Shown in pieces: positions 1,426-45,539 of a DNA stretch of 64,000 nucleotides. This DNA is from an uncultured archaeon (lineage in GTDB: Archaea; Altiarchaeota; Altiarchaeia; JAFGQM01). How positions within the stretch are numbered: the stretch's first letter is position 1; each line of letters opens with the position of its first letter. Below the pieces are notes generated by a model. The model was not told the DNA's origin. It was given only the letters and a program-made list of their open reading frames with translations, and did no database searches. Location: assembly GCA_964592405.1 (NCBI GenBank), contig CAZQBY010000002.1, positions 58,353-122,352 on the forward strand, in the 5' to 3' direction. The translations under genes and the position numbers were made by a program.

Positions 1426-2069
1426 ACCGGGCAGCTGGCCATTCTCATGAGTTCAATCTCGTCCCAGATGTGCCTTGCAGTGTCCATCTTGCTACAGACG
1501 CCCAGTTCCTTGACTGTATTCCTGTTGACCAGTATGGCTTCTGTTGTTTCTGAACCAAATGGGTTTTTTTCAATATCATTTGCAACCACCAGATCCACCT
1601 TTTTCTTCTTTAGGAATTCCTCAGCAACAATCCTCAGCTCATCCCTGCGCATACCATATTCGGCCTTGAATGCCGCTATAAAGAGCTGGGGGTGCATTCT
1701 CCTTGCCTCATCTATGAGCTTGGGAGTTGGTTCTAGCACGAGGTTTATGCATTTTCCACTCTTTATTTTGCCACAAACCTTTTTGGGGGAATAGTCAGAT
1801 ATGGCTGCACAGGATATCATGATGCTATACCTATGCTTCAGCTCACCCATGACGGCATCCACCATCTCGCGTGCAGTTTTGATCCTGATTTTCTTCACAT
1901 CTGGCAGCTTTATGTCCACCGGCCCGTGGACCAGAGTCACTTCATAGCCGCGCCTCCGAGCCTCCTCAGCCAGTGCGGCTCCCATCTTGCCGGAGCTGGC
2001 ATTGGTTATGAAGCGCACATCATCTATAGGCTCCTGTGTGGGGCCTGCTGTTATTAGGACTTTTGTCAT
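1422..2069 (-). CDS. coaB: Phosphopantothenate-cysteine ligase (stand-alone CoaB half)
   Basis: VLITAGPTQEPIDDVRFITNASSGKMG, AAISDY, FKAE and VVAND motifs. Confidence 0.92.
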   Translation of the reverse strand: MTKVLITAGPTQEPIDDVRFITNASSGKMGAALAEEARRRGYEVTLVHGPVDIKLPDVKKIRIKTAREMVDAVMGELKHRYSIMISCAAISDYSPKKVCGKIKSGKCINLVLEPTPKLIDEARRMHPQLFIAAFKAEYGMRRDELRIVAEEFLKKKKVDLVVANDIEKNPFGSETTEAILVNRNTVKELGVCSKMDTARHIWDEIELMRMASCPV

Positions 2070-2404
2070 TCTCGTGTTGATTCTACCAAGTGGGTTATGT
2101 GTATGTCCTGAAGAGGAATTTTCAAGGGACTTGAAAGACCGAAAAACTGCTGGCGCCTTCCAGTTTTATTGCCAGATTGGGCTATTGACATGTGTGTGAG
2201 GAAGAATTTGCCACCGCTTGCAAAGCCCAGGAAGCTGGCCTTTTGATGCACATGACCGCTAGTTCCGGCCTTTATGTGCGCTAAGAACATCTGGCCTTCC
2301 CGCAGGGAGCCCAATGAGACCATCCCTGATCTCCACTCTCGTCTGGATAATGAGAGACTGCTTATCTCCCGCTTTCTGAGGAGCGGAGGCACACGTCGTG
2401 GCAT
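2066..2404 (-). CDS. Orphan basic protein inserted between coaC and coaB
   Basis: 112 aa, co-oriented with both neighbours; its stop overlaps the coaB ATG (ATGA); N-terminus MPRRVPPLLRKR. Confidence 0.65.
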   Translation of the reverse strand: MPRRVPPLLRKREISSLSLSRREWRSGMVSLGSLREGQMFLAHIKAGTSGHVHQKASFLGFASGGKFFLTHMSIAQSGNKTGRRQQFFGLSSPLKIPLQDIHITHLVESTRE

Positions 2405-2427
2405 AGCAGTTAATTGGAGGCTCAGGA

Positions 2428-2994
2428 TTAAAAAAAGTTGAGAACAGCCTCAGCTACCCTTTCCCACTCCAGCTTCGCCTTGCCCTCCTCCTTTCTCGGC
2501 TCGACGAACCTGACGCCTGCTTTCTTGAGCTTCCCGATGTTCTCTTGGACAAAGGAGTTGTTCATCATTGAAGCGTGCATGGCAGGGGCAATGACCACAG
2601 GCATCCCGGAGCCCAAAGCGGTTGAAGCAAAGGTTGTTATCACTGAGTCGTCTATTCCATTTGCTATTTTAGATATTGTATTGGCAGTAGCGGGGCATAT
2701 CAACAGCAGGTCGCACCTGCCCTCCCACTTGCCGCAATGCTGGATATGCTCGCATGAGCCGGTGATGTCCGTGATGGTTTTTTTGCCAGTGATGCACTCC
2801 AGCGCCCATGGATGGATGATCTTCTGGCCGCTTTCGGACAAAACACAGATGACACCCGCCCCATGACGCATGAGCTCACGTGCCAGCTTGGGCGCCTCAA
2901 TGGCGGCGATGCTGCCACAGACGGCCAGGACTATGCGCTTGCCCTTGAGCCTCTTGGACTTGCTGCCGCAAACGGTCTCCTGATGCATCATCAC
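2428..2994 (-). CDS. coaC: Phosphopantothenoylcysteine decarboxylase (stand-alone CoaC flavoprotein half)
   Basis: KRIVLAVCGSIAA, PATANTISKIANGIDD and APAMHASM motifs. Confidence 0.92.
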   Translation of the reverse strand: MMMHQETVCGSKSKRLKGKRIVLAVCGSIAAIEAPKLARELMRHGAGVICVLSESGQKIIHPWALECITGKKTITDITGSCEHIQHCGKWEGRCDLLLICPATANTISKIANGIDDSVITTFASTALGSGMPVVIAPAMHASMMNNSFVQENIGKLKKAGVRFVEPRKEEGKAKLEWERVAEAVLNFF

Positions 2995-3045
2995 TGGTAA
3001 TTGAGGTTTCGTGTTTAAAACCTTTGAATTTCAAAATATTACAAA

Positions 3046-3546
3046 ATGCTCAGGAAAAGAGGTCCAAGTGGAGGGAGAAAGCTCCCTGGAGTTAGAGAGA
3101 TGGCGATGGGAATAGGTATAGAGAAGCATTATTATGACCCTTTTTCTGAAAGGGCTAGACAACAATGCTACAACTACGTCATCAATAATCTGCTAGGCCA
3201 ACAAGTACACAATTCTCTCAAAGCGCTCGGCATGGATCCGAACAAGCCTAATGAGTGGGAGCCTGATATCAAGAAGCTGTTGGGAAAAACTCGAGGGACT
3301 GCAAGAGTAAAGAGAATAGATGAGCTAAGAAAGCACATACACTCTGTGACAGCAGGATTGAAAAATGCCACTGACCACATTCTCTCTGAATGTCTGGAGC
3401 CCAACGGAAATCCAAAAAGCGATTTGCATGGGAGGGTACGACATAGGGCACTAAACACCATAACTGCAATGGGCCTTGCCCTAGTAGCTCTTAGAAAGAA
3501 ACTGGACAATGTAGAGAGTAGAGCTCGCAGAAGACGAAGACAGTGA
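3046..3546 (+). CDS. Orphan basic, mostly helical protein
   Basis: 166-aa ORF fills the coaC-DUF434 gap exactly; polybasic N-terminus and RARRRRRQ C-terminus. Confidence 0.7.
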   Translation: MLRKRGPSGGRKLPGVREMAMGIGIEKHYYDPFSERARQQCYNYVINNLLGQQVHNSLKALGMDPNKPNEWEPDIKKLLGKTRGTARVKRIDELRKHIHSVTAGLKNATDHILSECLEPNGNPKSDLHGRVRHRALNTITAMGLALVALRKKLDNVESRARRRRRQ

Positions 3547-4155
3547 TTATATCTCCCCTACCAAATCCACTACCCTGTCCACCTTTTCGATAATCGCCGT
3601 ATCACTGGTGGCCGTTATCCAGTTGAGTCTCTTTATCTCATAGTCCACGTTCGGGGCAGTCCTCGCATCGCCATCCACTCCCATTTCGTCCATCTTCCTG
3701 CGGACGAGAGCAGCCAGTTCGCCGCTCCTGGATACCTGCGAGTCAAAGATAAAGAGAACCTTCTTGGGTCCATGCTTCTTCAGGATGTTAAGTATTCCTT
3801 CAATGGCAGGCTCGGTGAACAACCCGGGTTTGTATCTGCCGGACAGCCCAAGTGAATCTCGATGGAGACCATCCTGTGCCTTGATTATGGGCCCTCTCCC
3901 AAGAGCGCACTCCGCTCCTATCAGGACATTGAAGCCGTCGATTACAAGCCTTCTTCCCCTTATCTTCTCGATGGGCCAGAGCCGCTTTCTGTGGTCTTTT
4001 ATCTCCTTTTCCGAATAGACACTTCTGACTATGATGTTACGCTGCTTTTTGCCAAGTCGGTAGTGGCCACAGACAAAGTTCAGGGCCGTCGAACGGCGGT
4101 AGCCCCTGTCAAGCAGATATCTGAAATCCTCAGAAGCCGCTTTTATTTTGTCCAT
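3547..4155 (-). CDS. DUF434 family protein
   Basis: YLLDRGY, LVIDGFNVLI, DGLHRD and FDSQVSRSGELA motifs. Confidence 0.88.
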   Translation of the reverse strand: MDKIKAASEDFRYLLDRGYRRSTALNFVCGHYRLGKKQRNIIVRSVYSEKEIKDHRKRLWPIEKIRGRRLVIDGFNVLIGAECALGRGPIIKAQDGLHRDSLGLSGRYKPGLFTEPAIEGILNILKKHGPKKVLFIFDSQVSRSGELAALVRRKMDEMGVDGDARTAPNVDYEIKRLNWITATSDTAIIEKVDRVVDLVGEI

Positions 4156-4177
4156 TACCTAATTTTATGAATGGATT

Positions 4178-5053: not shown

Positions 5054-5068
5054 TTTATAACCCGCCCG
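5054..5068 (+). promoter_or_regulatory. TATA box (TTTATAA) plus GC-rich element upstream of cimA
   Basis: TTTATAA lies 28-34 nt before the ATG at 5088, with no Shine-Dalgarno sequence. Confidence 0.5.
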
Positions 5069-5087
5069 TTTCAAAATAAGCCTGAAT

Positions 5088-6551: not shown

Positions 6552-6613
6552 TCCTCGGTTACCCGACTATTGCCCACAGCGCATATTTTTATAGAACTAG
6601 TCGTTAGTATGTC

Positions 6614-7021: not shown

Positions 7022-7028
7022 CTGTAGA

Positions 7029-7576: not shown

Positions 7577-7579
7577 ATA

Positions 7580-7924
7580 ATGAAGATTAGGGCACCCAGA
7601 GATAGCCATGACATAGTCCTGCAGGGTATACTCAGAAGGAAGCGAGAGGAACAGCTCAAAAAGCAGGATGAACTCAGGCTCAAGAAAGCCGAAGAGGATC
7701 TGAGAAATCTGGATGTTGTGCACAAGGATTACTACATAGATATGGAAACAGAAGCCTGGCTCAAGAGCGCCGTGGAGTTTCTGTTTAAGGAGTTTCCAAA
7801 CCTGGATATCAAAACCAAGAGAGAGGTGGCAAGACAGCTTGTGGATCAGATCAGCATCACGGGCCCGCCAAGGGAGCCGATGAAGGTTGTAGTGAGGGAC
7901 ACTGTGAACAGGGTGATAGGGTAG
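7580..7924 (+). CDS. Orphan charged helical protein
   Basis: 114 aa; starts 3 nt after the previous stop; coiled-coil-like KREEQLKKQDELRLKKAEE. Confidence 0.7.
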   Translation: MKIRAPRDSHDIVLQGILRRKREEQLKKQDELRLKKAEEDLRNLDVVHKDYYIDMETEAWLKSAVEFLFKEFPNLDIKTKREVARQLVDQISITGPPREPMKVVVRDTVNRVIG

Positions 7925-10750: not shown

Positions 10751-10892
10751 GTAGGACAAAGTTGTGAGGAGAGTAAAGCTGTAGGGATGGTGAGCCGTGT
10801 GAGGATGGTGGATAGGCATAACTAATCTCCCTATTGTAGGGATTTGTGCGAAAAGCTTTTTATGAGATGTGTTTCTATTTTTTCCATACCCA

Positions 10893-11120
10893 ATGGATGA
10901 TTTTATGTCTTGCCCAGATGACCTCTATGAAGAGGGCAGGAAGAGGAAAAAGAAGAAGGATGAAATAGAGGAACTCTTTGGAGATGAGGATGACGAAGAG
11001 GAAAAAGAATGCAGGCCCAAGGATGAATTTGATGAACTCTATGAACAGGGGCAGGGCGATCCTGAGGACGTATATGCCAACGAGGATTTTGAAAACTATG
11101 ATGATGGAGTCGCAGACTAG
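10893..11120 (+). CDS. Small, very acidic, disordered protein
   Basis: 75 aa from ATG 10893, Asp/Glu-rich with one RKRKKKK patch. Confidence 0.55.
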   Translation: MDDFMSCPDDLYEEGRKRKKKKDEIEELFGDEDDEEEKECRPKDEFDELYEQGQGDPEDVYANEDFENYDDGVAD

Positions 11121-13509: not shown

Positions 13510-14754
13510 TTAGCTTCCTGCCCTCATCCGGCTGGATCTCTGACTGGATCTGCGGCTGGGTATCTGATCTGGCCTTCGAGATCCCGGCTCACCCTCCCTA
13601 CGCATCCTGAAAAGCGTTATGACAACAATCGCCGCTATCAGTGCCAGCGCAATTACAGATGGCCAGGATCCTACACCCGGGGCAGACTCCCCAGCCGGTG
13701 CAACAGGAGACTCTGATTTGAAGACAACTCCCGCAACCTCCCTTGCTGTCTCTTCCACCTCTTTAGATTCTTGTACCGGCTCTGACTGTCCGGACTCTTT
13801 TGTTGCCTCTGGCTCTCCAGCCGGTTGGCCCTCTGTCCCAGGACTTGCACTCGAGACCGCCCAATCACTATAGTGCCCCCAGTCATGGGCATACCACTCG
13901 TATTCTAGGCCATTGACGCCCGCCTGGTAGGCTGTGTGCAGAACATCAGCTATGGCATTGATTATGTTATTGATGTTTCTTCCAGTGCACTCTATGAACT
14001 GTGGGTCATTCAAATCATAGTTGTTATCCATCCATTCAGCTGAGCAGGAGCCGTCTTTCCTTCCAAGATAGGTGGCCACACCCACCCTCAACACAGCATC
14101 ATAAGGCGATATGATCTCCAGTCTGCCGTCAAATTTTATATAGCTGCCGTATACCTCCTGAAACTCATCCGAGGGATATGTTATATCGGTCAGCCTGAGC
14201 ATATAGGTTTCGTAGTCAATGCCATGCTTTTTGTTGTCCAGAACCCGTGTGAATAAACCAGCATCTGAGATATATGATGCGATGACACCTGCCCATTTGG
14301 ATGCCGTGCCGGTGGCCCCAGATGCCAGAGAGTTGATGAGGAGCTCATATCTTTTCATAGAGCGCTTGGCCAGAGATGCGTCCAGAAGATTTCCTTTTTC
14401 ATCAAACCTTAGATATTGAGCCAATAGGTCATTTATACTCTCGGCATAGCCACTGCTATCAGGGAGTTCTGTGCCATAAAGATATAGTCTCTCACTGACC
14501 CATTCAGCCTCCTCAGGGGCCTGCCTGGCGAGCATTTCCAAGGCGGCCTTAGCAAAATAGTCATGGGTGCCAAACATGTTGGTTCTTTGCCACAACATTG
14601 GGTCATCCACAAATGTGGGCTCCCCCCACAAAGAATTGCCATTGCCCCAAGAAGAAACAGGAGGGATCATAGATAATGCAAAAAGCATGATAAGGGATAT
14701 CACAAAGAACCTGAATCCGGCCCTGGTGGGTGTGATCACAAACCTGGCTTCCAT
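13510..14754 (-). CDS. Secreted, C-terminally membrane-anchored protein with Zn-dependent phospholipase C / S1-P1 nuclease-like fold
   Basis: Signal peptide ending VSS-W; GTHD, ELPD, SYISD and HGIDYE motifs; Pro/Glu-rich linker; transmembrane helix followed by an Arg-rich tail. Confidence 0.65.
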   Translation of the reverse strand: MEARFVITPTRAGFRFFVISLIMLFALSMIPPVSSWGNGNSLWGEPTFVDDPMLWQRTNMFGTHDYFAKAALEMLARQAPEEAEWVSERLYLYGTELPDSSGYAESINDLLAQYLRFDEKGNLLDASLAKRSMKRYELLINSLASGATGTASKWAGVIASYISDAGLFTRVLDNKKHGIDYETYMLRLTDITYPSDEFQEVYGSYIKFDGRLEIISPYDAVLRVGVATYLGRKDGSCSAEWMDNNYDLNDPQFIECTGRNINNIINAIADVLHTAYQAGVNGLEYEWYAHDWGHYSDWAVSSASPGTEGQPAGEPEATKESGQSEPVQESKEVEETAREVAGVVFKSESPVAPAGESAPGVGSWPSVIALALIAAIVVITLFRMRREGEPGSRRPDQIPSRRSSQRSSRMRAGS

Positions 14755-16070: not shown

Positions 16071-16673
16071 TTACGGTTTTTCCTCCTCCCAGTCGGTATT
16101 TACATATCTGGTTATGTATTCAATAGGGACCTTGTTTATTGGAACCTGATGTACACTGCCATCCATAGCCCTAACCTCTGGTATGTGCCCGGGTTTCAGG
16201 CGGACCACTTCATAATCGCCGATTATGCCATGCTTCTTTGCCTTTTTGGCAGTCTCCGATATGTCCCTTATATACTCTTCGCTGACATTATTTAACATAC
16301 CTCCCGGGATTATGGTCAACTTTGTTTCGCTAGGCTCCCATATCCCAAGCCTGCTTTTCCCATGCCTTCCCTTAATCGCCCTCAGCATGAACCCCAGAAA
16401 ATCCTCCGGGTGGTGAAGCCGGTTTGTGACATTGACGACGTCTCCGCCCAACAGCCTGCTTATATCCCTCTCTGTGGGAAACTCTCGCATAGCCTTGGCG
16501 GACTGAGTAACCCTGTGACCAACAACTGCTCCCGGTTTTCCCGGCCTGTGAAGTACTATACCGGTGCAGATGCTGATTGGGGTATATATGGCATGGTGTT
16601 TGTTTGAAGCAACCACATAGCCGGACCCCAGCACCATTTTTTTTATCCTAGGCCTTGGAGACTTTGGAGGCAT
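16071..16673 (-). CDS. CheD/CNF1-fold deamidase-like orphan, copy 1
   Basis: YTPISICTGIV...VVGH and KLTIIPGGM align by eye with CheD TLGLGSCVAV...AMAH and AKIAGGASM; ATG 16673 lies 2 nt after the herA stop. Confidence 0.65.
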   Translation of the reverse strand: MPPKSPRPRIKKMVLGSGYVVASNKHHAIYTPISICTGIVLHRPGKPGAVVGHRVTQSAKAMREFPTERDISRLLGGDVVNVTNRLHHPEDFLGFMLRAIKGRHGKSRLGIWEPSETKLTIIPGGMLNNVSEEYIRDISETAKKAKKHGIIGDYEVVRLKPGHIPEVRAMDGSVHQVPINKVPIEYITRYVNTDWEEEKP

Positions 16674-16675
16674 TT

Positions 16676-18214
16676 TTATGAGAATTCCGACAGATCGGTC
16701 TTTGTCTGCCTGACAGACGATTGACATGAACCCGAGATAAAATCCCTATCAAACAGAGGGATGTGGACTGGAATGGCAAACTTTGTAAAGGTGGAGGTTA
16801 TCAGCGCCTCTCCCTTGTCCAGTGAGGCAATATTGCGTCCGTCCTTGCTAAGGTCTTGGGATGCACTCTCGATAATGGCACGCCTCTCCGGCTCCATCTC
16901 AATGCCCAATATTATCTTGGTGTTCATGTTGGCTAGGACCTCGCGCGGTATAAGGGATGGGAGCTGCGTTATCGCGATGAGGCCTATCTTGAACTTTCTA
17001 CCCTCCCGCGCAATGGTAGAGAAGATGTTCGGCCCGGCCTGCAACACGTCCTTCCCAAGGACGCGTGGAGCCTCCTCTATTATTATGGATATCACGGGCT
17101 TTGTGGAGAGCTTGCCATTCTTCTTGTAGTACTTGTACCTGTCCAGCGCCTCTGAGGCGACCATTGAGGATATGAGGAGTTCCAGCTCGCTGGAGAGTGG
17201 GGATGTGTCCACTATTACAGTCTTGCCCATCTCCAGTGCAGAAACCATGTTCTCCAGTGTATTCTCATACTTCTCCTCTGCAAAGACTCCCTCGCACTTG
17301 ACGGTACCGTCCTCCGATGATATGCCCAGTATGTTGAGTTTCCTTATCAGCACGGCAAGCGTTTCCTCCTTGACACCGGTAGCCGGTTCACCACTCAGTA
17401 TATTTGCCACCCACTCCTCCTTGTCCAATTTGTAGTATGTGAACAGCGCATCACGCTGGGCAGGTGAGAGATTGAGAACCCCTTGGAAGAACCACGGCTT
17501 CAGCAGGTGATAGTTTATCCTGAGCGTTTCCGCGCCAGCCGGCGGATTGGTGGAGTAATAGACAATTTTTTCTCCTGCCCTTGGGTGATTCCCCAGCCCC
17601 GCCTCTTTTCCGCCGGGGCCGTTGTAGTACTCATCATGCGGGTCAAGTATCAGCATACCGCAATAGTTCTTGTCAATGGCAGACCAAGACATTATTCTGA
17701 CAAGATTCGACTTGCCACGCCCGGTGGTGGCTGATATGAGGACATGGTGAGAGAGCACCTTCCTACCATCCAGCTCGACTGGTATGCCCATGTCTTTTGA
17801 TCCGGAGCGGATGTTGCCGACATAGAGGGCATTCTCCTCCCTGCCCAGGAAGTCCAGATCAGCCTTGTTTATCCTCCTGACAGGGCTGAAGAAGCTCGGC
17901 AACGTCTTGGGCATGCGCGCAATGCCTGCGTTTATGGACACCAGCCCTTTGACTTCTGCTAGAACATAATTGCGCAAGTCCGCCTCCATAAAGCCTAGAT
18001 CAGAGCCATGGCCCTCCAGTTCCATGCCGGAAAGCAGTTCCAGCGACTTTGGAGGTATCTGTGAGGCATAAAGGAGGTTGTATACCTGCAGAATGGTTTT
18101 TTTGTTGCCGTTCTCTGTCACAAGCAGCTCGCCCAGCTCCAGCTCCTCACCGCTTTTCTGGCGCACTAGAAGCTCGCCAAATTCCCCAGATAGAATCTGC
18201 CCAACTACTTCCAC
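16676..18214 (-). CDS. herA: HerA bipolar helicase
   Basis: N-terminal HAS barrel, [14 protein letters not shown] and [10 protein letters not shown]...ITQLP motifs. Confidence 0.93.
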
Positions 18215-18247: not shown

Positions 18248-18964
18248 TCACTGCCTTTCGACTAGTTTGAAGGGTATGTTTTGAAAATTTCTTTTGTAGA
18301 ATTTCTTTTTCCTCGACATCACAGCTTTGGACACCTTGGGGTGCTCGATTACTATCCCAAGTATCTGTTCTGGGCCGAATTTCTCGATTCCCCCCTGCTC
18401 TGGCTTTCCTGAACGTGTCATAGGGGCCATGATATGGAGAGTATATCTGTCACCCCTTATGGACTTGATAGACCTGGCATAAGGCAGATTTGGTGATGCC
18501 CAAGAGCTTGGGATTTTTCTCTCGTAAACCCTGTCAACATTGGGCCACCTTTCGGACCTGAATCCCTCTGAGAGTATAATTTTCAAAACCCCAAAGCTAT
18601 CTATCTTGTATGTTAGTGGGCGGATACCATGCATAACAGGATTCTGGTGCACAACAAAGCGCATTTTGCCCTTTGGGGAGCGGGCCACCCTAAAGTCCAC
18701 AACACCGTTTGGAAGACCAAAACTGAATATGTGCTGGCTTGCACTCCTCGTCTTCAGGTCCTGCATGCGGCGAATCACAGCCTCTTTCAGCCTTTTTGCA
18801 GTTTTCATCGCATGCGTTCTCTCGGAAAATTGCACCCCTGAATCCTCAAAAGCCGAGATTATCTTCTTTAGCGGCGTCCTGCGCGCATCTGTCAGTGTGC
18901 CCTCAAAAATGTGAAACGGCCTAGCCCCCCTAATCCTCTGTCTATGAAATCTTCTTATGGGCAT
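18248..18964 (-). CDS. Orphan basic protein with ADP-ribosyltransferase-like C-terminal domain
   Basis: VMHGI...ILSEGFRS...SWASPNLPYA...YTLHI...PEQILGI follows the ART/Tpt1-like motif order. Confidence 0.55.
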   Translation of the reverse strand: MPIRRFHRQRIRGARPFHIFEGTLTDARRTPLKKIISAFEDSGVQFSERTHAMKTAKRLKEAVIRRMQDLKTRSASQHIFSFGLPNGVVDFRVARSPKGKMRFVVHQNPVMHGIRPLTYKIDSFGVLKIILSEGFRSERWPNVDRVYERKIPSSWASPNLPYARSIKSIRGDRYTLHIMAPMTRSGKPEQGGIEKFGPEQILGIVIEHPKVSKAVMSRKKKFYKRNFQNIPFKLVERQ

Positions 18965-21120: not shown

Positions 21121-21960
21121 GTGGATGTCTTCTTTGATCCTGTGTTCCTGAAGCATGATACCGGTTTCCACCCGGAAAACGCCGGCAGGCTGGAGCTGAT
21201 ATTGGACTCACTGGATGAGGATAAGCTGAAGAAGCCGCGCAATGGAGAGGGGTTCCTCAAGCTGGCCCACACGCCTGATTACATCACCAAGGTCAGGCAG
21301 GCCTGCAAAGATGGCGGTTATCTTGACATGGACACTCCTGTCTCGCCTGACACCTACAAAGCGGCATGCATGGCAGTCGGGGCTGCAGTAGATGCCTCAG
21401 AATCCGAAGGCTTCGCGCTGGTGAGGCCACCGGGGCACCACGCCTTCGCGGACCGCGGGTCTGGGTTCTGCATATTCAACAACATGGCCATAGCGGCCAT
21501 CAGGCTAGCTGAAAAGGGTAAAAGGGTCTTCATCTTGGACATAGATGTACACCATGGAAACGGAACGGAGGCATTGGTGTTGGGAAGGGAAAACATAGAG
21601 TTCCTCTCCATACATCAGAGCCCTCTTTATCCAGGAAGCGGGCTGACAGACCGGCCCCCAAATGTGATTAACATTCCCCTTCCGCCGAACACTGGTGACG
21701 AGGGTTACATTGCTGCTCTAGAAGAGAGGGTCGAACCAGAGATAAAAAAATTTGATCCGGATAATGTTGGAGTCTCAGTCGGCTTTGACGCCTACTATCT
21801 GGACTGTGGTTCTGTCTTAGGTAATGCCCTGACTATCACACAGAAGACCTATAAAAGGATCAGGGATATGCTCATACCTTATAAAACCTTCTTCACACTT
21901 GAAGGCGGATACCACCCCCGGAGCCTGCTGGAGGGTGCACACGCGCTGATGGACTTATGA
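21121..21960 (+). CDS. Histone deacetylase family (class II-like) amidohydrolase
   Basis: HPEN, RPPGHHA, GFCIFNN, DIDVHHGNGT, GFD and EGGY motifs. Confidence 0.93.
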   Translation: MDVFFDPVFLKHDTGFHPENAGRLELILDSLDEDKLKKPRNGEGFLKLAHTPDYITKVRQACKDGGYLDMDTPVSPDTYKAACMAVGAAVDASESEGFALVRPPGHHAFADRGSGFCIFNNMAIAAIRLAEKGKRVFILDIDVHHGNGTEALVLGRENIEFLSIHQSPLYPGSGLTDRPPNVINIPLPPNTGDEGYIAALEERVEPEIKKFDPDNVGVSVGFDAYYLDCGSVLGNALTITQKTYKRIRDMLIPYKTFFTLEGGYHPRSLLEGAHALMDL

Positions 21961-22613
21961 TGACCAGAAAGCATAAGACGAGGGCCATGACACCAGCAAG
22001 GAAGTTCAGGATATCTGCAAGTAATCCTGTATTAATGTCTGAAGTTAAGGTAGTAAAGGAAAGGGAAGGAGCAACGAGCTTTGGCACAGGGCCGTGCTTC
22101 ACGCTGGTCTTCCAGCGCAGGGGCAAAGTTGTAAGGGAGAGGGGACCGCATGGCGTTAGGAGAAAGCGGGGGAAACCCACAAGCGTCATCTGGCATGCCA
22201 TGCCGACTTATATCTACTACAACCCCCGGCAGGGGCCGGAGGGTAGTAAAGAGGTAGCGAAAAAGCTGAAGGAGGCAGGGGGGCTCCGAAAGTATGAAAC
22301 TGATGAATTTCACCCAAAGACTGTTACAGACGGCATACTGGACTATCTTTACGGCAGGGGGAGAGGAAGTGCGCGGATATCTGTAACCATCATACCGGGC
22401 AGGATGACCCTGAATAGTCCGCTTTTTTCAAGATCTATGGATGAGATAATAAAGCTCCTGCACATGTACAAAAAGGAAGGCAAGATACACAGCCTCCGCA
22501 CCCGTGGGATATCAAAGGGCAAGGGAAGTCTTATCACACATGTGGACCAACACGGAAGGATATACAGAGACTCATTGAAGCCGTGGAAGAGAAGAGGGGA
22601 GGGTAGAGCATAA
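21957..22613 (+). CDS. CheD/CNF1-fold deamidase-like orphan, copy 2
   Basis: VLMSEVKVV...SFGTGPCFTLVF...VIWHAMP...VTIIPGRM; ATGA overlap with the deacetylase stop. Confidence 0.65.
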   Translation: MMTRKHKTRAMTPARKFRISASNPVLMSEVKVVKEREGATSFGTGPCFTLVFQRRGKVVRERGPHGVRRKRGKPTSVIWHAMPTYIYYNPRQGPEGSKEVAKKLKEAGGLRKYETDEFHPKTVTDGILDYLYGRGRGSARISVTIIPGRMTLNSPLFSRSMDEIIKLLHMYKKEGKIHSLRTRGISKGKGSLITHVDQHGRIYRDSLKPWKRRGEGRA

Positions 22614-22749
22614 AGACAAAAAGGTAAAATCAAAACAGGATAGCCTGGCAGCCTGCTTGGGCAAGGGGACACCCGCACATCTGGGATGAAGGCATATGGG
22701 GGTGTGTAGATCTGTCCCGGCGTCAGGATTTACAGACTGAAGTGAAAAA

Positions 22750-23406
22750 ATGGTGAAAACCATTTTTATTCCATGCCGCGCGGAGGCGGACATCAAGCTC
22801 GTGGTTGAGAGCATATTGGAGAAGGTGGACTACGACAAGATAGGCCTGGTGACGACGGCCCAGTTTGTCCACCAGTTGAATGAAGTCAAAAGGGGACTTG
22901 AGAAGGGGGGTAAGACCGTTGTCATCTCCCCGGGCCACCCAAACCCCGGACAGATCCTGGGCTGTGATGTGCGCGCAGCAAGGGATGCCGACTGCTATGT
23001 CTATCTGGGCACAGGCCACTTCCACCCGCTGAGGGTGGCAGAGGAGACTGGCAAGCCCGTGTTCATGGTCCACCCGAGCGGAGGTATTGAGGCAGTATCC
23101 GAAGACCAGCTTATGAAGCGCGCAAAGATACGCGCTGCGCGCATGCACAGGTTCAAAGAGGCTAAGACCGTGGGCGTGATAGTCTCTACAAAACCGGGTC
23201 AGAACAGGATAGGAAAGGCACTGGAATTGAGGGAGAGGCTCAGAGGAAAAAAACAAACGTTTATATTCGCCGCGAATGAAATTAAACCCGACTGTTTTGA
23301 AGGATATGATGTGGACGCATGGGTCAATACGGCGTGCCCGCGAATTACCGAGGACCGTTTTGGAAGGCCCATGGTTGACATTTCTGAGATCTGGAGGGAT
23401 TTGTAA
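22750..23406 (+). CDS. dph2: Diphthamide biosynthesis protein Dph2, short form
   Basis: LVTTAQF, GQILGCD, GHFHP, STKPGQ and NTACPRI motifs. Confidence 0.85.
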   Translation: MVKTIFIPCRAEADIKLVVESILEKVDYDKIGLVTTAQFVHQLNEVKRGLEKGGKTVVISPGHPNPGQILGCDVRAARDADCYVYLGTGHFHPLRVAEETGKPVFMVHPSGGIEAVSEDQLMKRAKIRAARMHRFKEAKTVGVIVSTKPGQNRIGKALELRERLRGKKQTFIFAANEIKPDCFEGYDVDAWVNTACPRITEDRFGRPMVDISEIWRDL

Positions 23407-24266: not shown

Positions 24267-25736
24267 ATGCCGCTGGGTGGTCTGAAATGGAGGGATGAGC
24301 TAGAGCCCAAGGAGTTCAGGAGAATCAAGAGCGAGGTCCAGATTCTGGGCATAGATGATGCGCCCTTCGGGAGGAAGGACAAGAATGTCAAGATAGTTGC
24401 AGTCCTTACGCGGGGTGCCAAGATGCTGGACGGCGTCTTTCACTCCAGTATAAAAAAGGATGGGCTTGATGCCACAGACAGGATAATCCAGCTTGTAAAG
24501 GACATAAAGCGTGAGAACGTGCGCACCATACTGCTGGACGGTATCACATACGGCGGCTTCAACACTGTTGACATCCAGAGAGTTTACCATGAGACTGGTA
24601 TTCCGGTAATTGTTTCTATGCAGAAGCGCCCGGACCACGCAAAGATACATGCAGCCCTGAGGAATCTTGAGAATGCAGATCTGAGGAAGAGTATGATAGA
24701 TGCAGCCGGCAGGGTATATGAGATCCGGCTGGATGGTAACAGAAAGGTTTATATGCAGACTGCCGGGATAAGGAGGGAAGATGCAGAGGAGATTATCAGG
24801 CTCACAACAGTTAATGGCCTGGTGCCGGAGCCAATACGGGCAGCCCATATGATAGCCAAGGGTGCCTACACTGAGATACCAAAAGAGCAGCGCAATGATG
24901 AATGGCTGCATATGAAAGCGTATAACTATGTGAGGGATACCCACAGAAAGGTCAAAAAGTGGAAGAGGAAAACCTTTCCGGGCTTTGCCGGCGAAGTAGT
25001 CAGCTTCCTTTTTGCCCTTTTGCTCGCCTGGCTCTTCATACAGATGTTGGGCTGGATGCTAAACACATCCTCACCACTGGTGGTTGTAGAATCAGAGTCT
25101 ATGGTGCATACCGGCGACTGGATGACATGGTATTTCGACCATAATCTTGACCCAATGACCTATGGCTTTGGCAGCGGGATGGGCGTCGGCGATATCATAA
25201 TCGTAAAGGGAGACAATCCTGATGATATAAACATAGGGGATGTAATCCTGTACACCAAATACAGCTCCAGGACAATCGGCGGCGAGCCGGTTATCCACAG
25301 GGTAGTTGGTATTGTGGGCATAAACGGTGATGAGGTTTACACTGAGGGCGCGGTAAGATGGGACGGAGAAAGGATTATTACACCATGTAGCAGCAGTTCT
25401 AGTTACAGCCTTGATGAGATAAGGAGCCTGTATTCGGGCGATGCTATAAACCGTGTAGTGCCGGGGGTGAAGGACGATCTGACCAGCTTCCGGCTTTTCA
25501 TAACAAAGGGGGACAACCCCAAAAACAATCCCCGGGAAGACCAGTGCAGATTTGGAGGCTCTCCGATGATATCCTATCCCGTCCATGAAAGAACTGTTGT
25601 TGGGAGGGCCAAACTTGACATTCCTTATATCGGATACGTCAAGCTGGGTCTGGTCTGCGCCTACCGCTTTGCCACAGGCAACGTCTGCGGCTGCAGGTGC
25701 TGGTGGGCCGCCGACCATCCCAACTGCTGCAGGTAA
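24267..25736 (+). CDS. Fusion of DUF99 (endonuclease V-like) domain and signal peptidase I (S26)
   Basis: N half: ILGIDDAPF, LLDGITYGGFN and PEPIRAAH. After a transmembrane helix: VVESESM, GDIIIV, VIHRVV and FITKGDN. Confidence 0.85.
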   Translation: MPLGGLKWRDELEPKEFRRIKSEVQILGIDDAPFGRKDKNVKIVAVLTRGAKMLDGVFHSSIKKDGLDATDRIIQLVKDIKRENVRTILLDGITYGGFNTVDIQRVYHETGIPVIVSMQKRPDHAKIHAALRNLENADLRKSMIDAAGRVYEIRLDGNRKVYMQTAGIRREDAEEIIRLTTVNGLVPEPIRAAHMIAKGAYTEIPKEQRNDEWLHMKAYNYVRDTHRKVKKWKRKTFPGFAGEVVSFLFALLLAWLFIQMLGWMLNTSSPLVVVESESMVHTGDWMTWYFDHNLDPMTYGFGSGMGVGDIIIVKGDNPDDINIGDVILYTKYSSRTIGGEPVIHRVVGIVGINGDEVYTEGAVRWDGERIITPCSSSSSYSLDEIRSLYSGDAINRVVPGVKDDLTSFRLFITKGDNPKNNPREDQCRFGGSPMISYPVHERTVVGRAKLDIPYIGYVKLGLVCAYRFATGNVCGCRCWWAADHPNCCR

Positions 25737-32769: not shown

Positions 32770-33378
32770 ATGAAACTCACAGATGAACAGGGAAAGAAGG
32801 CAGTGCATATAGCCAGAAGGACTGTGGACACCTTTGTCAGAGGGAGGGGGAGGTATGTGCCAGAGGAATTTCCAGAAATCTTTAAAGAGAAGCGTGGGGT
32901 GTTTGTAACCCTGCAGAAATATCCGGGTGGAGAGCTTCGGGGCTGTATAGGCTTTCCTGAACCAGTGGCACAATTGATAGACGCACTCATTGATTCGGCC
33001 ATATCGGCAGCGTCCAGGGATCCAAGATTCGAGCCGGTCAGGGAGGATGAACTGGATGGAATAACCGTTGAGGTCTCAGTTCTAACGCCTCCGCAGTTGC
33101 TGAAAGTAAAGGATACACAAGATTACCCGAAGAGAATCAGTATAGGCAGAGACGGGTTGATTATAAGGCAGGGATTTGCATCCGGGTTGCTGTTGCCGCA
33201 GGTCCCGGTAGAGTGGGGATGGGATGAGGAGGAATTCCTCTCACAGACATGCTGGAAGGCAGGGCTTCCGCCAGACGCATGGCTAGACCCGGAAGCTGAG
33301 ATCTATTCATTCCAAGCACAAATTTGGACGGAGAAGACGCCAAGAGGAGAGGTTGTGAAAAAGGAACTAGATAAGTAG
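32770..33378 (+). CDS. AmmeMemoRadiSam protein A (AMMECR1 family)
   Basis: GVFVTL, LRGCIG and GLLLPQV motifs. Confidence 0.93.
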   Translation: MKLTDEQGKKAVHIARRTVDTFVRGRGRYVPEEFPEIFKEKRGVFVTLQKYPGGELRGCIGFPEPVAQLIDALIDSAISAASRDPRFEPVREDELDGITVEVSVLTPPQLLKVKDTQDYPKRISIGRDGLIIRQGFASGLLLPQVPVEWGWDEEEFLSQTCWKAGLPPDAWLDPEAEIYSFQAQIWTEKTPRGEVVKKELDK

Positions 33379-33768
33379 ATATGGCTTCTCCTCAATCACC
33401 CTTTTATATTTCCTATAAAAGCTGTTGACAGTTTTGGTATCTATCCGTTTTCCAAAGCACTCATGGGGCACAAGGGCGCCACTGAAAGTCTTTGGCACGT
33501 GGAGAAGCTCGTGAATAAGTGTCTTATCCTGTTCCTCTTCTGACATATTATCAAATTTTTCGGAGATTACTTCTATTATATAATATGCCCTGAGGTAGAG
33601 GGCCTGTTGCCATATCCTTGGCAACCCCCATATACGCGCAACGGCACGTGTCTTTGCACCGGTAGAACGCATGCAGATTATATGCTTGCCGCTAACATGT
33701 TTCAGATCCAACGCACGCACCATGGCCCTTATCCTGTGGTCAATATCCGGAGCCAGCTCAGTCTTCAT
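33367..33768 (-). CDS. Putative metallopeptidase (HExxH)
   Basis: ARIWGLP, YIIEVISE and LIHELLH motifs. Confidence 0.8.
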   Translation of the reverse strand: MKTELAPDIDHRIRAMVRALDLKHVSGKHIICMRSTGAKTRAVARIWGLPRIWQQALYLRAYYIIEVISEKFDNMSEEEQDKTLIHELLHVPKTFSGALVPHECFGKRIDTKTVNSFYRKYKRVIEEKPYLLI

Positions 33769-39556: not shown

Positions 39557-39771
39557 ACGGTAATTTAATATATAATCCTTTAAAAACTTTAGATTTTTAT
39601 ATTATTTTTTTAAAAAATAAATTAAAAAATAAAGACATCTAAATGGACCCGGTCTTGTTTTGGAAAAGGCTGATAGGAGGGAGAGAAGACACGAAAGAGC
39701 ACAACGGGGGAGAGATCTGCGGATCCCAGGAGTAGGATAGCTTTTTCAAAGTTGGCCGGCAAAAGATAATT

Positions 39772-40221: not shown

Positions 40222-40267
40222 CAGCCAAATAAGGCTTTAATAAGGGCTTTTTCTAATTAGGCGGAAG

Positions 40268-41657: not shown

Positions 41658-41702
41658 TTCCCACTTTTATTCATTTAACAGTTATTAACTCCTAACCATA
41701 CG

Positions 41703-41879
41703 ATGGCTCTGATAGTGGAGGAAACCTTTGAAGCGTTGTTTGCCCTAACGGACATCCGTCAATTGCTCAGAGAGACAAAACCCTCATACAAGCTCACTCC
41801 GGAGCAGAGGAAGCTGCTTGAAAAGAGGATTGCGCGCGTACGCAAGGCACTGGAGATTATTGAGAAGGAATTTGGATAA
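41703..41879 (+). CDS. 58-aa helical protein coupled to SepCysS (candidate SepCysE-N-like partner)
   Basis: My translation: MALIVEETFEALFALTDIRQLLRETKPSYKLTPEQRKLLEKRIARVRKALEIIEKEFG; TAATG overlap with the pscS start; TATA box upstream. Confidence 0.7.
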   Translation: MALIVEETFEALFALTDIRQLLRETKPSYKLTPEQRKLLEKRIARVRKALEIIEKEFG

Positions 41880-43054
41880 TGCAGCCAATACGCAATATAC
41901 AGGTTAGGACGCGCGAAGAGGAGTACATCAACATCCAGCCGATACAGGCCGCTGGCCGTCTGACTGCAGACGCCATGAAGGCGCTCATCGCCTATGGGGA
42001 TGGTTACTCGACCTGCGATTTGTGTCTCAAGCCGTTCCGTCTGGATTATATCAGGAAGCCGAATATCGCCGATTTCTACACAGACTTGGCCAAGTTTGTC
42101 AACATGGATGTCGCGCGCGTCATGCCGGGCGCGCGAAGAGCCTTTCAGGCTGTCTGCCTGAGCCTGTTGAGTAAGGGTGACACCGCCTTGATAAGCCAGT
42201 ATGGCCACTACTCACTAGCCTTGGCCATCGAACAAAGCGGCGCACAGTGGAGGGAGATTCCTGCAAATGACAAAAACCTAATTACTGCAGAAGCAACAGC
42301 ACAGAAGATAGAATTAGTCAAAAAGGAGACAGGAAATCTGCCAAAGCTGGTTGCCATGCATCACTTTGACTACATGCTTGCCAACGAGCATGAAATCAAG
42401 GATATAATCAGGGTGGCTCATGAGTATGATATCCCCCTCCTCTACAACGGGGCATATACAGTTGGTGTGATGCCCGTAGACGGCAAGAAGTTAGGTGCTG
42501 ACTTTGTTGTTGGATCAGGCCACAAATCCATGGCGGCTCCGGCACCAACGGGTGTTCTGGCAATGACAGAGGAATGGGCTGAGAAAGTCTTGAACACTAC
42601 AAACGCCGCCGGGGATGTTACAGGCAGAAAATTCGGCATCAAGGAGGTCCAGCTCTTGGGCTGTACGGTCATGGGCGCGCCGCTGATAGCCATGATGGCT
42701 TCTTTCCCCCATGTGCAGGAGCGCATCAAGCACTGGGATGAAGAGGTCAGAAAGTCCAACTATTTCATAGATGAGATGCTCAGGATAGAGGGAACTACAT
42801 GCATAAGTGAGTATCCACGAAAACACACTTTGACAAAAATAAACACAGAGGGTTTTGACAGGGTGGCAAAGACCCACAAAAAACGCGGTTTTTTCCTGAC
42901 CAGTGAGCTCTCAAAGCGTCACATAACCGGGCCGTTCCCCGGGGCAACCCGCGACTGGAAGCTGAACACCTACGGGCTGACCTGGGAGCAGATAGAATAC
43001 ACTGCTAACGCCTTCCATGAGATTGCCAAGAAGAGCGGCCTGACCGTTTCTTAA
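41879..43054 (+). CDS. pscS: O-phosphoseryl-tRNA:Cys-tRNA synthase (SepCysS)
   Basis: INIQPIQAAGRL, GDGYSTCDLC, GSGHKS (PLP Lys) and LLGCT motifs. Confidence 0.93.
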   Translation: MQPIRNIQVRTREEEYINIQPIQAAGRLTADAMKALIAYGDGYSTCDLCLKPFRLDYIRKPNIADFYTDLAKFVNMDVARVMPGARRAFQAVCLSLLSKGDTALISQYGHYSLALAIEQSGAQWREIPANDKNLITAEATAQKIELVKKETGNLPKLVAMHHFDYMLANEHEIKDIIRVAHEYDIPLLYNGAYTVGVMPVDGKKLGADFVVGSGHKSMAAPAPTGVLAMTEEWAEKVLNTTNAAGDVTGRKFGIKEVQLLGCTVMGAPLIAMMASFPHVQERIKHWDEEVRKSNYFIDEMLRIEGTTCISEYPRKHTLTKINTEGFDRVAKTHKKRGFFLTSELSKRHITGPFPGATRDWKLNTYGLTWEQIEYTANAFHEIAKKSGLTVS

Positions 43055-43090
43055 AACAGGATTTATTAATCCCGACCGGCAAGATTACCC

Positions 43091-44266
43091 GTGGACTACA
43101 TCTATCTGGATAATGACGCCTCTACGCGCGTGGATGATGAGGTAGTGGAGGCAATGATACCCTTCTTCACCAAAGACTATGGCATGGCCAGCTCCGACTT
43201 CGGTCACACCTACGGAGTCAAGTGCAGGCGCGCCATAGAGGAAGCGCGCGCAATAATAGCCGAAAAGATAAATGCTGAACCGGAAGAGGTTTTATTCACC
43301 TCTGGTGTGGCAGAGTCCAATAACACCGCCATCCGCGGGATGGGAATGGGCAAAAATGGTAATATGGTGACCAGCACCATCGAGCAGAAAACAGTTCTCA
43401 ACGTCATGAAGTTTCTCGAGGACCACAAGCGGGTCAAGAGGGCGGTCGTAGGAGTTGACAACGAGGGTTTCGTGGATTTTGAAGAGCTGGAAAGGGCGAT
43501 TACCAAAGACACGAGGGTAGTATCCATCCAGCATGCGAACCATGAGATAGGCACAATACAAGACATTGCCCGGATAGGCAGGCTCTGTAGCGAGAAGGGC
43601 ATCCCCTTCCACACGGATGCATCACACAGCTTCCTGAAAACCGATATAGATGTAGAGAGGATGAACATAGACCTGATGACTATAAGCGCACACAACATAT
43701 ACGGGCCGAAGGGTGTGGGTGCACTCTACGTCAGGAAGGGTATAGAAATCACACCGCTACTGATTGGCGGGGGGGAGCAGAGAGGACTGCGCTCCGGGCT
43801 GGAGGATGTTCCAGCAATAGTCGGATTTGCTAAGGCAGTAGAGATATACAACGAGAAGGACAACGCCAAAATGCGCGTACTGAGGGATTATTTGATAGAT
43901 GGACTGCTGGGAATAGAGGATACACACCTCAACGGTCCCAAGGGCAAGAAACGCCTGTGCAACAACGCCAACATAACATTCAAATACGTAGAGGGCGAAT
44001 CTATCCTGCTCCATCTGGACATGCGTGGTATAGCAGTCACAACCGGCTCTGCCTGTTTCAGCAGGGAGCTCACCCCAAGCCATGTAATACATGCTATAGG
44101 TGGCAGCCATGCAGACGCACATGGATCAGTCAGGTTCAGTTTGTCCAAGTACAATAACAGGCAGGAGATGGATTATACAGTGAAAAACGTCAGGGAGGTT
44201 GTCGAAAAGTTAAGGGAGATAAGCCCTGTTGGAGGGGGCAAGACCAAAAGGGGGACTAAAGACTAA
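43091..44266 (+). CDS. iscS: IscS-family protein with the PLP-binding Lys replaced by Asn
   Basis: YLDNDAST, HANHEIGT, SAHNIYGPKG and TTGSACFS motifs. Confidence 0.88.
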   Translation: MDYIYLDNDASTRVDDEVVEAMIPFFTKDYGMASSDFGHTYGVKCRRAIEEARAIIAEKINAEPEEVLFTSGVAESNNTAIRGMGMGKNGNMVTSTIEQKTVLNVMKFLEDHKRVKRAVVGVDNEGFVDFEELERAITKDTRVVSIQHANHEIGTIQDIARIGRLCSEKGIPFHTDASHSFLKTDIDVERMNIDLMTISAHNIYGPKGVGALYVRKGIEITPLLIGGGEQRGLRSGLEDVPAIVGFAKAVEIYNEKDNAKMRVLRDYLIDGLLGIEDTHLNGPKGKKRLCNNANITFKYVEGESILLHLDMRGIAVTTGSACFSRELTPSHVIHAIGGSHADAHGSVRFSLSKYNNRQEMDYTVKNVREVVEKLREISPVGGGKTKRGTKD

Positions 44267-44278
44267 AAGAAGCTGAAG

Positions 44279-44917
44279 ATGTATACAGAGAAGGTCATGG
44301 ATCACTTCAAGAACCCACGCAATGTAGGGGAGATAAAAAACCCGGATGCAAAGTCAACTGAAGGCAGTCTTGCCTGCGGAGATATGGTAACCATGTATCT
44401 CAGGATAGACAAGAAGTCGCATGTGATAAAGGACATCAAGTTCAAATCCTTCGGATGCGCATCCAACATCGCCACATGCTCCGCGCTGACAGAGATGGTA
44501 AAAGGCAAGACCATTGAGGATGCCAAAAACATCAAATTTGAGGAGATTGCTGATTATCTGGGCGGCCTGCCCAAGATAAAGATGCACTGCGCGGTTTTGG
44601 CTACAGTGGCCCTGCGCTCGGCAATCAAGAACTATGAGGAGGAGCATGGCCTTGTTGATGTTAGGGAGGAGGTGAATGAGGAGAATGTCAAGAAGCGACT
44701 ACGCCATGTCATGGATCCGGACAGTGGTAAGGATATTGTCAGCCTAGGAATAGTCAAGAGAATAATGATAAAGGGCGAGACCATTGAGATTCTGGTCGAG
44801 CTTCCCCCCAACTACCGCTATGCAGAGGTGGTGTTTGACGAGATAAAGGAAAAGCTGATAGGTCTGCCCAAGATCAAAAAAATTGACGTCAAGCTCGTTA
44901 AGGGCGGGGCTTTCTGA
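44279..44917 (+). CDS. iscU: IscU scaffold fused to a C-terminal DUF59/MIP18-like domain
   Basis: DHFKNPRNVG, ACGD, FGCAS and KMHC motifs, then VMDPDSGKDIVSLGIV. Confidence 0.88.
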   Translation: MYTEKVMDHFKNPRNVGEIKNPDAKSTEGSLACGDMVTMYLRIDKKSHVIKDIKFKSFGCASNIATCSALTEMVKGKTIEDAKNIKFEEIADYLGGLPKIKMHCAVLATVALRSAIKNYEEEHGLVDVREEVNEENVKKRLRHVMDPDSGKDIVSLGIVKRIMIKGETIEILVELPPNYRYAEVVFDEIKEKLIGLPKIKKIDVKLVKGGAF

Positions 44918-45539
44918 TCGGAATCTTCGATTTTTCATGCATCATGTGCCCCGGCGGATTGTATCCCCGGGGGAGTTCAGTTATGCCAGGTATCCATGTC
45001 AGCATCCTTTGGTTTACACCTACTGTCCTAAATTTGGAATACGGGCCAGCCTTCGGCTTTGTGCCAAAACTCACGGCAGATATACCCAGATGTTCACCCT
45101 GCATAAGCTCATTCAAACCTATTTCACTTCCCAAGCCCAAGCCCTTTATGACGGCCACCTCACCGGGCCCCACAGTCATATGCTCTAGTTTTCTCTGACT
45201 TTTTCCCCTCCATTCAGGTGAGGCGTGGAACATAAGAAGACCCTCGATCCTTGGACTGACTTTATAGGCCGTCATGTTGGGAGTATACTGTATGCAGGCC
45301 ACAGGTGTGAGCCTCCCTGCCTCACCCACGTGGTTGACAAGCAACATTTGGTGGTGTCCGCCTCTCTTGATCTTTTTGTACCATCTCTGGACTACAATAC
45401 CGTGTCCTTCCCTCACCTTTCTCATCTCATAACCGGCCCTCTTAAGGCCTTCCTGGGTGGGAATCCTCAGGTTTGGGCGCCTATGAACCTCCATCCTGAT
45501 AGGATGTGTGTGCCCATGCTGTGGTTTTCGGTGAGGCAT
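44898..45539 (-). CDS. Orphan basic protein, GNAT-like fold
   Basis: LMFHASPEWRGK...KGLGLGSEI resembles a split acetyl-CoA motif A; polybasic termini. Confidence 0.55.
   Translation of the reverse strand: MPHRKPQHGHTHPIRMEVHRRPNLRIPTQEGLKRAGYEMRKVREGHGIVVQRWYKKIKRGGHHQMLLVNHVGEAGRLTPVACIQYTPNMTAYKVSPRIEGLLMFHASPEWRGKSQRKLEHMTVGPGEVAVIKGLGLGSEIGLNELMQGEHLGISAVSFGTKPKAGPYSKFRTVGVNQRMLTWIPGITELPRGYNPPGHMMHEKSKIPIRKPRP

Follow-up and report, generated by a model that had tools for sequence, protein, structure and literature searches.

Seven small open reading frames (ORFs), labelled here c1 to c7, lie scattered through a 64,000-nt stretch of contig CAZQBY010000002.1 from an uncultured archaeon; in all counts below, the window means this whole stretch. 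An initial annotation grouped them as orphans that begin with a short polybasic leader and proposed that this leader is a shared non-Sec targeting signal of effector proteins. We find that the seven ORFs are not one kind of thing. The leader itself is a real shared feature, carried by at least four unrelated families, and this is the strongest part of the finding. Two of the proteins, c4 and c6, appear to belong to one new family of probable cysteine amidohydrolases, which is restricted to an Altiarchaeota-related lineage. We give a probability of roughly 45% to the reading that the leader-bearing proteins, the two probable deamidases among them, work inside the cell and are held on nucleic acid or nucleoprotein by their basic arm.

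The leader was scored as the net charge of the first 16 residues, ranked over 66 ORFs of the window. The top five places, at +4 to +6, are taken by c5, c6, c2, c4 and c1; c7 is moderate (+3, plus four His) and c3 reaches only +1. In each protein, charge is packed about three times as densely in the leader as in the remainder. The arms of c1, c2 and c4 to c7 contain Pro, sometimes within an [ST]-P-x-[KR]-like core. Overall, the leaders carry a net charge of +4 to +8 over the first 16 residues, and the Lys/Arg cluster lies in an unstructured terminal segment, as expected of a basic arm: residues 1-20 of c6 are predicted by AlphaFold2 to be disordered, with a predicted local distance difference test score (pLDDT) of about 58 and no secondary structure. 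Scores of at least +4 were seen in 5 of the 18 genes without a Pfam match and in 2 of the 50 with one (Fisher p=0.012; Mann-Whitney p=0.010), in a post hoc test on a small sample of genes accepted as real. Basic leaders are rare in the housekeeping genes of the window, rather than equally common there. We ruled out a nucleotide-level cause, namely an A-rich 5' coding bias, as the base composition of the leader is close to that of the rest of the gene. Alternative start sites do not remove the leaders of c4 to c7.

The leader is kept in kind, though not in sequence, in the orthologues of c4, c5, c6 and c7. In the family that comprises c4 and c6, 21 of 26 full-length members score at least +4, with a mean of +4.8 against +0.34 for the Pfam genes of the window. 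These leaders cannot be aligned, save for a loose R-x-[ST]-[TR]-P-x-K-R-F core in c6-type members. Other proteins without an assigned family carry the same kind of N-terminus. One is a 268/283-residue family adjoining Mre11 (L089 5257-6108, L084 4508-5314; L-numbers denote related loci fetched for comparison), which also has sub-threshold helix-turn-helix matches. Two more, of 612 and 938 residues and without Pfam matches, lie between Mre11 and Rad50 in an Altiarchaeota metagenome-assembled genome (MAG; L004 13264-15102 and 15145-17961). The annotated proteins with similar N-termini in the examined loci are ribosomal protein L37ae and the RNA polymerase subunit RpoL. Taking the window and its close relatives together, 8.8% of ORFs bear a leader, compared with 2.0% in 70 other archaeal HerA loci (p=5e-6), by a crude definition (net charge of at least +5 in the first 16 residues and no hydrophobic run) and with a bias, since the relatives were partly selected via these very families.

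That bias is one of several reasons to consider whether the leaders have any common function at all. They could be a by-product of basic, low-complexity, young and fast-evolving proteins confined to one lineage, with the seven most basic starts picked out by eye. Basicity extends over the full length of all seven proteins (pI 9.2-11.8), the window test is modest as well as post hoc (p about 0.01), the leaders are not alignable between families, and c1 and c2 have no homologues and an ambiguous codon usage. Such an origin does not readily account for the threefold excess of charge in the leader, or for a basic character that persists in 21 of 26 members of a family whose 28 clusters have diverged to 14-30% identity. 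It also fits poorly with the semi-conserved core of the c6-type leaders and with the non-homologous ORFs that occupy the same slot in three relatives, all of which start polybasic. We judge a mere by-product to be unlikely, while giving it serious weight.

Sec and Tat signal peptides resemble the leaders in having a positively charged N-terminal region. Unlike them, c1 to c7 lack a hydrophobic h-region, and they lack a twin-arginine consensus followed by a hydrophobic core. No hydrophobic run is present in the first 45 residues of the leader-bearing orphans, and the leaders are therefore not Sec or Tat signals. An ORF in one of the related loci (L085 9300-9839) provides a contrast: behind its basic n-region comes a hydrophobic stretch that ends in a lipobox-like AGC, in the manner of a signal peptide. 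Another parallel is offered by the basic motifs of the nuclear localization signal (NLS) type that are found on archaeal ribosomal proteins, where nuclear import is impossible (Melnikov et al., bioRxiv 10.1101/671966). Both occur on archaeal proteins as short segments that are rich in Lys/Arg and contain Pro. On ribosomal proteins, the motifs are internal, conserved in sequence and placed on universal nucleic-acid-binding proteins, whereas the leaders described here are N-terminal, variable in sequence and placed on lineage-specific, non-ribosomal proteins whose nucleic-acid binding is putative.

A profile comparison by hhalign, in which the Cys, the His and a Pro-Gly loop of the two proteins come to lie opposite each other (probability 89%, E 2e-6 over 138 columns), shows c4 and c6 to be paralogues within one tiny family. 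An exhaustive HMMER search of 1.84 billion representative proteins recovered only 28 clusters of this family, and all ten clusters that were looked up are unnamed singletons. The family is restricted to an Altiarchaeota-related lineage; a HerA search of a genome collection gave as nearest relatives uncultured archaea and a 'Candidatus Altiarchaeota' MAG, with HerA identities of 61-79%.

Within that lineage, the genes keep their places. The c4 type is found in the HerA-x-Mre11 slot in L003 (11703-12251, 36% identity), in L087 and L089 (61%, frameshifted) and in L131 (147-698). Genes of the c6 type, often two in tandem, fill the HDAC-x-Dph2 slot in L003 (two copies), L005, L006, L084 (two) and L087 (two), and the syntenic copies reach down to 29% identity. 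Among distant c6-type members, one is coupled to FEN1 and another to a class-V aminotransferase, two genes away from Dph6. Translational coupling, suggested in the initial annotation, was borne out for c1, which overlaps CoaB (ATGA), for c4, whose ATG lies 2 nt past the HerA stop, and for c6, which overlaps HDAC (ATGA). Identity to the nearest relative is 58-65% for c4 to c6 and 56-88% for their neighbours, a moderate divergence that argues for purifying selection; judged by these alignments, c4 to c6 appear constrained, yet faster-evolving than most of the genes around them.

The c4 orthologue of the relatives at 61% identity is split by its frameshift between the Cys and His motifs (L087 880-1470, L089 4635-5224 and L090). 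The split is present in three independent assemblies; it either marks a pseudogene or reflects an assembly error that recurs. Genes of the c6 type lie near diphthamide genes twice, namely beside Dph2 (window 21957-23406 and four relatives) and near Dph6 (L133 1202-4980), and a link of the putative deamidase to diphthamide or EF2 is conceivable. The Dph2 of the window (22750-23406) is short, covering Pfam profile positions 63-287 of 302. Truncation by a c6 insertion was ruled out, because a short Dph2 of 217-227 residues is common to all relatives and is thus a trait of the lineage.

The enzyme assignment of this family comes from structure prediction. An AlphaFold2 model of c6 built from 31 sequences has a pLDDT of 88.3 and a predicted template modelling (TM) score of 0.85, and is confident save for residues 1-22 and the C-terminal tail. 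In a Foldseek search of the PDB, its first match is CheD (2f9z_C; E 5e-3, probability 1.00, TM-score 0.62 by target and 0.46 by query), and the second is human NTAN1 (6a0f_B; E 1e-2, probability 0.93, TM-scores 0.34/0.26). Of the viral models in BFVD, those of Mimiviridae proteins match best, and one of these is labelled CheD. An earlier model built from 6 sequences (pLDDT 74.8), whose best Foldseek match was APOBEC3F with a TM-score of 0.2, was discarded. CheD, NTAN1, BLF1 and CNF1 are grouped together as CNF1/YfiH-like cysteine hydrolases, with the triads Thr21/Cys27/His44 in CheD and Ser69/Cys75/His92 in NTAN1 (PMC7022378). Four positions are near-invariant in the 31 sequences of the family, Cys47, His80, Pro147 and Gly148 in c6 numbering, and most c6-type members have a Ser six residues before the Cys, so that Ser41/Cys47/His80 is the putative triad of c6. 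Because the predicted CNF1/YfiH-like fold is accompanied by a conserved Cys-His pair and, in the c6 type, by the Ser at this offset, we infer that c4 and c6 are probably cysteine amidohydrolases deamidating Gln or Asn on a protein substrate. The initial annotation had recognised a CheD/CNF1 deamidase fold twice, and for c4 and c6 this is borne out at the level of the fold.

The family is likely to be CheD/NTAN1-like at the fold level only, and would be a new family rather than CheD proper. CheD (PDB 2F9Z; Pfam PF03975) resembles c6 in its structure, in where the Ser/Thr and the His lie along the chain (six residues ahead of the Cys, and behind it, respectively), and in the strand, Gly-containing loop and helix that follow the active site. 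It differs in that the c4/c6 family has the polybasic arm, extra inserts and about 60 more residues, has no Pfam CheD match and has no chemotaxis genes nearby; scans of about 68 genes of the window, and of the related loci, found no chemotaxis domain. NTAN1, the N-terminal asparagine amidohydrolase (PDB 6A0F; Pfam PF14736), has the same Ser-to-Cys offset as c6, and one family member gives a faint PF14736 match (E 0.076). Unlike c6, NTAN1 is eukaryotic and has a C-terminal lid that confers specificity for N-terminal Asn, and no such region is evident in c6. Toxins of the CNF1/BLF1 type are members of this CNF1/YfiH-like superfamily (PMC7022378); they were not among the Foldseek matches, and in them the fold forms domains of secreted bacterial toxins with dedicated delivery modules, to which the orphans show no counterpart. 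Searches of PDB sequences and profiles with the c4, c5, c6 and c7 families returned nothing real; the profile searches recovered neither CheD nor NTAN1, and their pentatricopeptide-repeat (PPR) matches were a repeat artefact in which every stretch scored about 3 bits.

If the fold holds, the superfamily of CheD/NTAN1/CNF1 deamidases gains through c4 and c6 a branch that had not been described before. This branch is confined to an Altiarchaeota-related lineage and built into the operons of HerA-Mre11 double-strand-break repair and HDAC-Dph2 protein modification. It would point to protein deamidation as a means of regulating archaeal information processing, an essentially unexplored subject.

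Two further families carry the leader in the window. An orthologue of c5, 65% identical, occupies the same NurA-x-HerA slot in two relatives (L087 3046-3765, L089 2339-3058) and begins with the leader MPIKKIRRQDSRRLKP; c5 is absent from L003 to L006, where NurA and HerA are adjacent. A homologue of c7 (P0008, 37% identical) lies beside POR-gamma in the sister genome CAZINR01 (L083 8001-8663), and a more distant, possible paralogue is found at L083 7272-7946 (27% in alignment, BLASTP E 0.098). The sole Cys of c7 is not conserved. Kinship of c5 or c7 with the c4/c6 family was considered and rejected, as hhalign gave no relationship, and an all-against-all BLAST of 21 orphans linked only c5 with its orthologue, c7 with P0008, and the 268- and 283-residue proteins of L084 and L089 with each other. 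On these comparisons, c5 and c7 appear to be two separate lineage-restricted families. The initial annotation had also recognised an ADP-ribosyltransferase and a GNAT fold, presumably in c5 and c7, respectively. No ADP-ribosyltransferase match, or any other, was found for c5 and its orthologue in Pfam, NCBIfam, PADLOC, PHROGs or PDB sequences. Likewise, c7, P0008 and the possible paralogue gave no match in Pfam or in the PDB profile search, these being searches at the sequence level only.

On the reading that we prefer, c1, c2 and c4 to c7 would share a disordered, Pro-containing polybasic N-terminal arm, and their genes would descend vertically in fixed, often coupled slots of information-processing operons: HerA-x-Mre11, NurA-x-HerA, HDAC-x-Dph2 and, in a relative, FEN1-x. 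It is because of this apparent vertical inheritance in coupled slots that we infer an action inside the cell. The arm would tether the protein electrostatically to DNA, to RNA or to a partner that is acidic, much as the NLS-type motifs may do on archaeal ribosomal proteins, and would bring an enzyme or factor to the repair, chromatin or translation machinery. A disordered polybasic arm on at least four unrelated lineage-specific families amounts to a testable portable protein module in archaea.

Several observations weigh against this reading. Members of the c4 type lack a Ser or Thr six residues before the Cys, none of the 31 family members matches Pfam CheD even at E-values up to 10, and the structural match of c6 is moderate. 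Comparing CheD with the family by hhalign gives a probability of only 3.5%, in an alignment that still brings together the helix, the strand and the Gly loop that should correspond. Several toxins make use of the deamidase fold, and position in an operon does not prove an intracellular function. In comparison with L003, c4 is 36% and c6 47% identical, where the median for neighbouring genes is about 67%; faster divergence, tandem duplication, and gain and loss are equally typical of genes involved in interaction or conflict.

The initial annotation favoured delivery to another cell, with the leader as a non-Sec export or transfer signal and the proteins as effectors or toxins aimed at a host, partner or competitor. 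A leader placed on unrelated folds is what one would see with a portable signal, and its higher frequency in this lineage, the basic tails of several of the proteins, and the use of the CNF1/BLF1-type fold by bacterial toxins (PMC7022378) would all suit this idea, as would faster evolution than the neighbours, tandem duplication and variation in presence and absence. The genomic setting speaks otherwise. Effectors would be expected to show a variable distribution outside core operons; c4-, c5- and c6-type genes vary in presence and copy number between relatives, and in several genomes they occupy fixed slots within operons for repair or protein modification (HerA/Mre11/NurA and HDAC/Dph2), coupled to their neighbours and conserved in position down to 29% identity. 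Conserved syntenic orthologues with ordinary cytoplasmic roles had been named beforehand as evidence that would count against effectors; syntenic orthologues without an assigned role were found for c4, c5 and c6. The two proteins nearest in structure, CheD and NTAN1, are not toxins; both act as regulators in the cytoplasm. A search for a translocation apparatus had been proposed, and no secretion ATPase, translocon or other secretion component was found in the 64-kb window. Archaea are not known to have a polybasic export signal. The suggestion of a symbiotic, DPANN-like organism fared no better, as the window encodes biosynthesis of coenzyme A (CoA), thiamine, purine, leucine-type products and glutamine, along with pyruvate:ferredoxin oxidoreductase (POR) and Fe-S assembly, a gene content that does not suggest a strongly reduced or obligate symbiont. 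We regard delivery to another cell as quite improbable.

A broader form of the same thought is that the arm is a sorting or targeting signal of this lineage, mounted on unrelated families that include the new CheD/NTAN1-like branch, and directing them either outward or into a partner, or to a defined compartment or condensate within the cell, for instance the nucleoid. This strikes us as improbable; were it true, the arm would be an archaeal, pre-eukaryotic counterpart of the NLS. As a tether or as a targeting signal, the arm bears on how NLS-like motifs could have originated before the nucleus.

The slots could also be read as landing sites for selfish or conflict cassettes lodged between conserved genes, akin to homing endonucleases, toxin-antitoxin modules or defence genes, with the arm as a DNA-binding module. 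What fills them varies from relative to relative, and the ORFs are sometimes non-homologous; most relatives lack the c1 and c5 insertions, and the c4 orthologue is frameshifted in one relative. No sign of mobility was found. As the initial annotation had noted, the orphans are single genes between housekeeping genes, and Pfam scans of the neighbours, which confirmed their housekeeping nature, turned up no integrase or transposase. No dispersed, inverted or terminal repeats were found flanking the orphans, no nuclease, integrase, toxin-antitoxin or defence domain was detected with Pfam, PADLOC or PHROGs (the PADLOC defence-system models gave no match), and viral contigs, scanned for c5 and the families of c6 and c7, yielded no relatives. 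The codon usage of c3 to c7 is host-like, and the c6 and c4 types have stayed in their slots through long divergence, a sign of vertical descent. Cassettes of this kind are very unlikely to be the explanation.

Coding potential was assessed by codon-usage likelihood, with 44 long genes of the window as the training set; these genes themselves span a delta of 0.09-0.30. The values for c3 to c7, 0.15-0.29 (c5 at 0.15 and c3 at 0.29), fall inside this range of real genes, and those for c1 and c2 are ambiguous. The original set of seven basic-led orphans holds largely for c2 and c4 to c7; it does not hold for c3, and c1 is doubtful as a gene.

With a delta of -0.003, c1 fills a 340-nt insert that is unique to the source organism, because CoaC and CoaB are adjacent (5-70 nt apart) in four relatives (L091, L092, L094 and L130). 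Searches of the fetched loci with tblastx and blastn gave no c1 homologue, and the chance of an open frame as long in the shuffled insert is 0.018. It is a doubtful or very young gene. For c2 (delta 0.027), the length of the ORF is far beyond chance (P<5e-5), and no homologue was found in the fetched loci, making it a singleton. Its start is uncertain, and the leader could be a 5' untranslated region because a correctly spaced GGAG lies 8 nt ahead of an internal ATG at 3100. The same slot in L091 (3487-3927) and L130 (2024-2248) holds non-homologous small ORFs with polybasic leaders. Conserved intergenic DNA upstream of c2 was considered as the c2 promoter, and fits a CoaC promoter better: TCAAAGGTTTTAAA, on the CoaC strand at window 3013-3026 and at the equivalent place in L091 and L130, resembles a BRE/TATA promoter element. 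Placed about 25 nt upstream of the CoaC gene, it probably directs leaderless transcription of CoaC. Finally, c3 has an orthologue (L130 144-488, 66% identical) whose N-terminus, MELQYPRETHD, is not basic. It is an ordinary conserved small protein, probably helical or coiled-coil, and without a real polybasic leader it stands outside the class.

All seven ORFs, with the N- and C-termini quoted for them in the initial annotation, were confirmed at the coordinates listed in Table 1. The start of c4 at 16673 is an internal ATG within an ORF spanning 16071-16727, and is backed by the orthologues. None of c1 to c7 has a match in Pfam, NCBIfam, PADLOC or PHROGs, even at permissive thresholds, and Rfam and tRNA scans of the window found nothing.

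Table 1. The seven ORFs and two of their neighbours in the window
Feature	Position	Strand	Description	Termini or family match
c1	2066-2404	-	112-aa ORF between CoaC and CoaB	leader MPRRVPPLLRKR
c2	3046-3546	+	166-aa orphan, divergent from CoaC	leader MLRKRGPSGGRK, tail RARRRRRQ
c3	7580-7924	+	114-aa conserved small protein	
c4	16071-16673	-	200 aa, between HerA and Mre11	leader MPPKSPRPRIKK, acidic tail DWEEEKP
c5	18248-18964	-	238-aa orphan, between NurA and HerA	leader MPIRRFHRQRIRGARP
c6	21957-22613	+	218 aa, between HDAC-type deacetylase and Dph2	leader residues 1-22, basic tail
c7	44898-45539	-	213-aa orphan, antisense between NifU/IscU and POR-gamma	leader MPHRKPQHGH, tail KIPIRKPRP
HerA	16676-18214	-	flanked by c5 and c4	Pfam DUF87/HerA, E 1.5e-23
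HDAC-type deacetylase	21121-21960	+	stop overlaps c6 start (ATGA)	Pfam Hist_deacetyl, E 5.8e-64

Some further features of the repair operon and its surroundings were recorded. Between Mre11 and Rad50 (window 13510-14754) lies a 414-residue protein without a Pfam match, conserved in L003 to L006 and in L084, which may be an unrecognised partner in the repair operon. The HerA ORF of L009 (3106-6258) has 1050 residues against 512 in the window, and the insertion of about 540 residues is probably an intein; a 1.6-kb gap at the NurA/HerA junction of this locus, considered as another orphan, is this insertion inside HerA. In the sister genome, a radical-SAM gene of the HMPTM type (L083 1-2951) contains Intein_splicing and LAGLIDADG_3 domains, which the window copy (49269-50894, 541 residues) lacks. 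A 489-residue protein (window 24267-25736) has an Endo_dU (NucS-type) domain in residues 23-200 only; its long C-terminal part has no family match, and the protein has the same length in relatives.

Elsewhere in the window, an 83-residue ORF at 10869-11120 is highly acidic (39% Asp+Glu, pI 4.1), with coding-like codon usage and no family match. Wedged in between AMMECR1 and ThiC (33367-33768) is a gene for 133 residues whose domain match is 'putative phage metallopeptidase'. Near the end of the window, two surface-type paralogues lie next to each other (61407-62297 and 62351-63964), with 75% identity over 250 residues and a beta-helix domain in the longer one; inside them is a 300-nt direct repeat, 97% identical (61489-61788 and 62436-62735).

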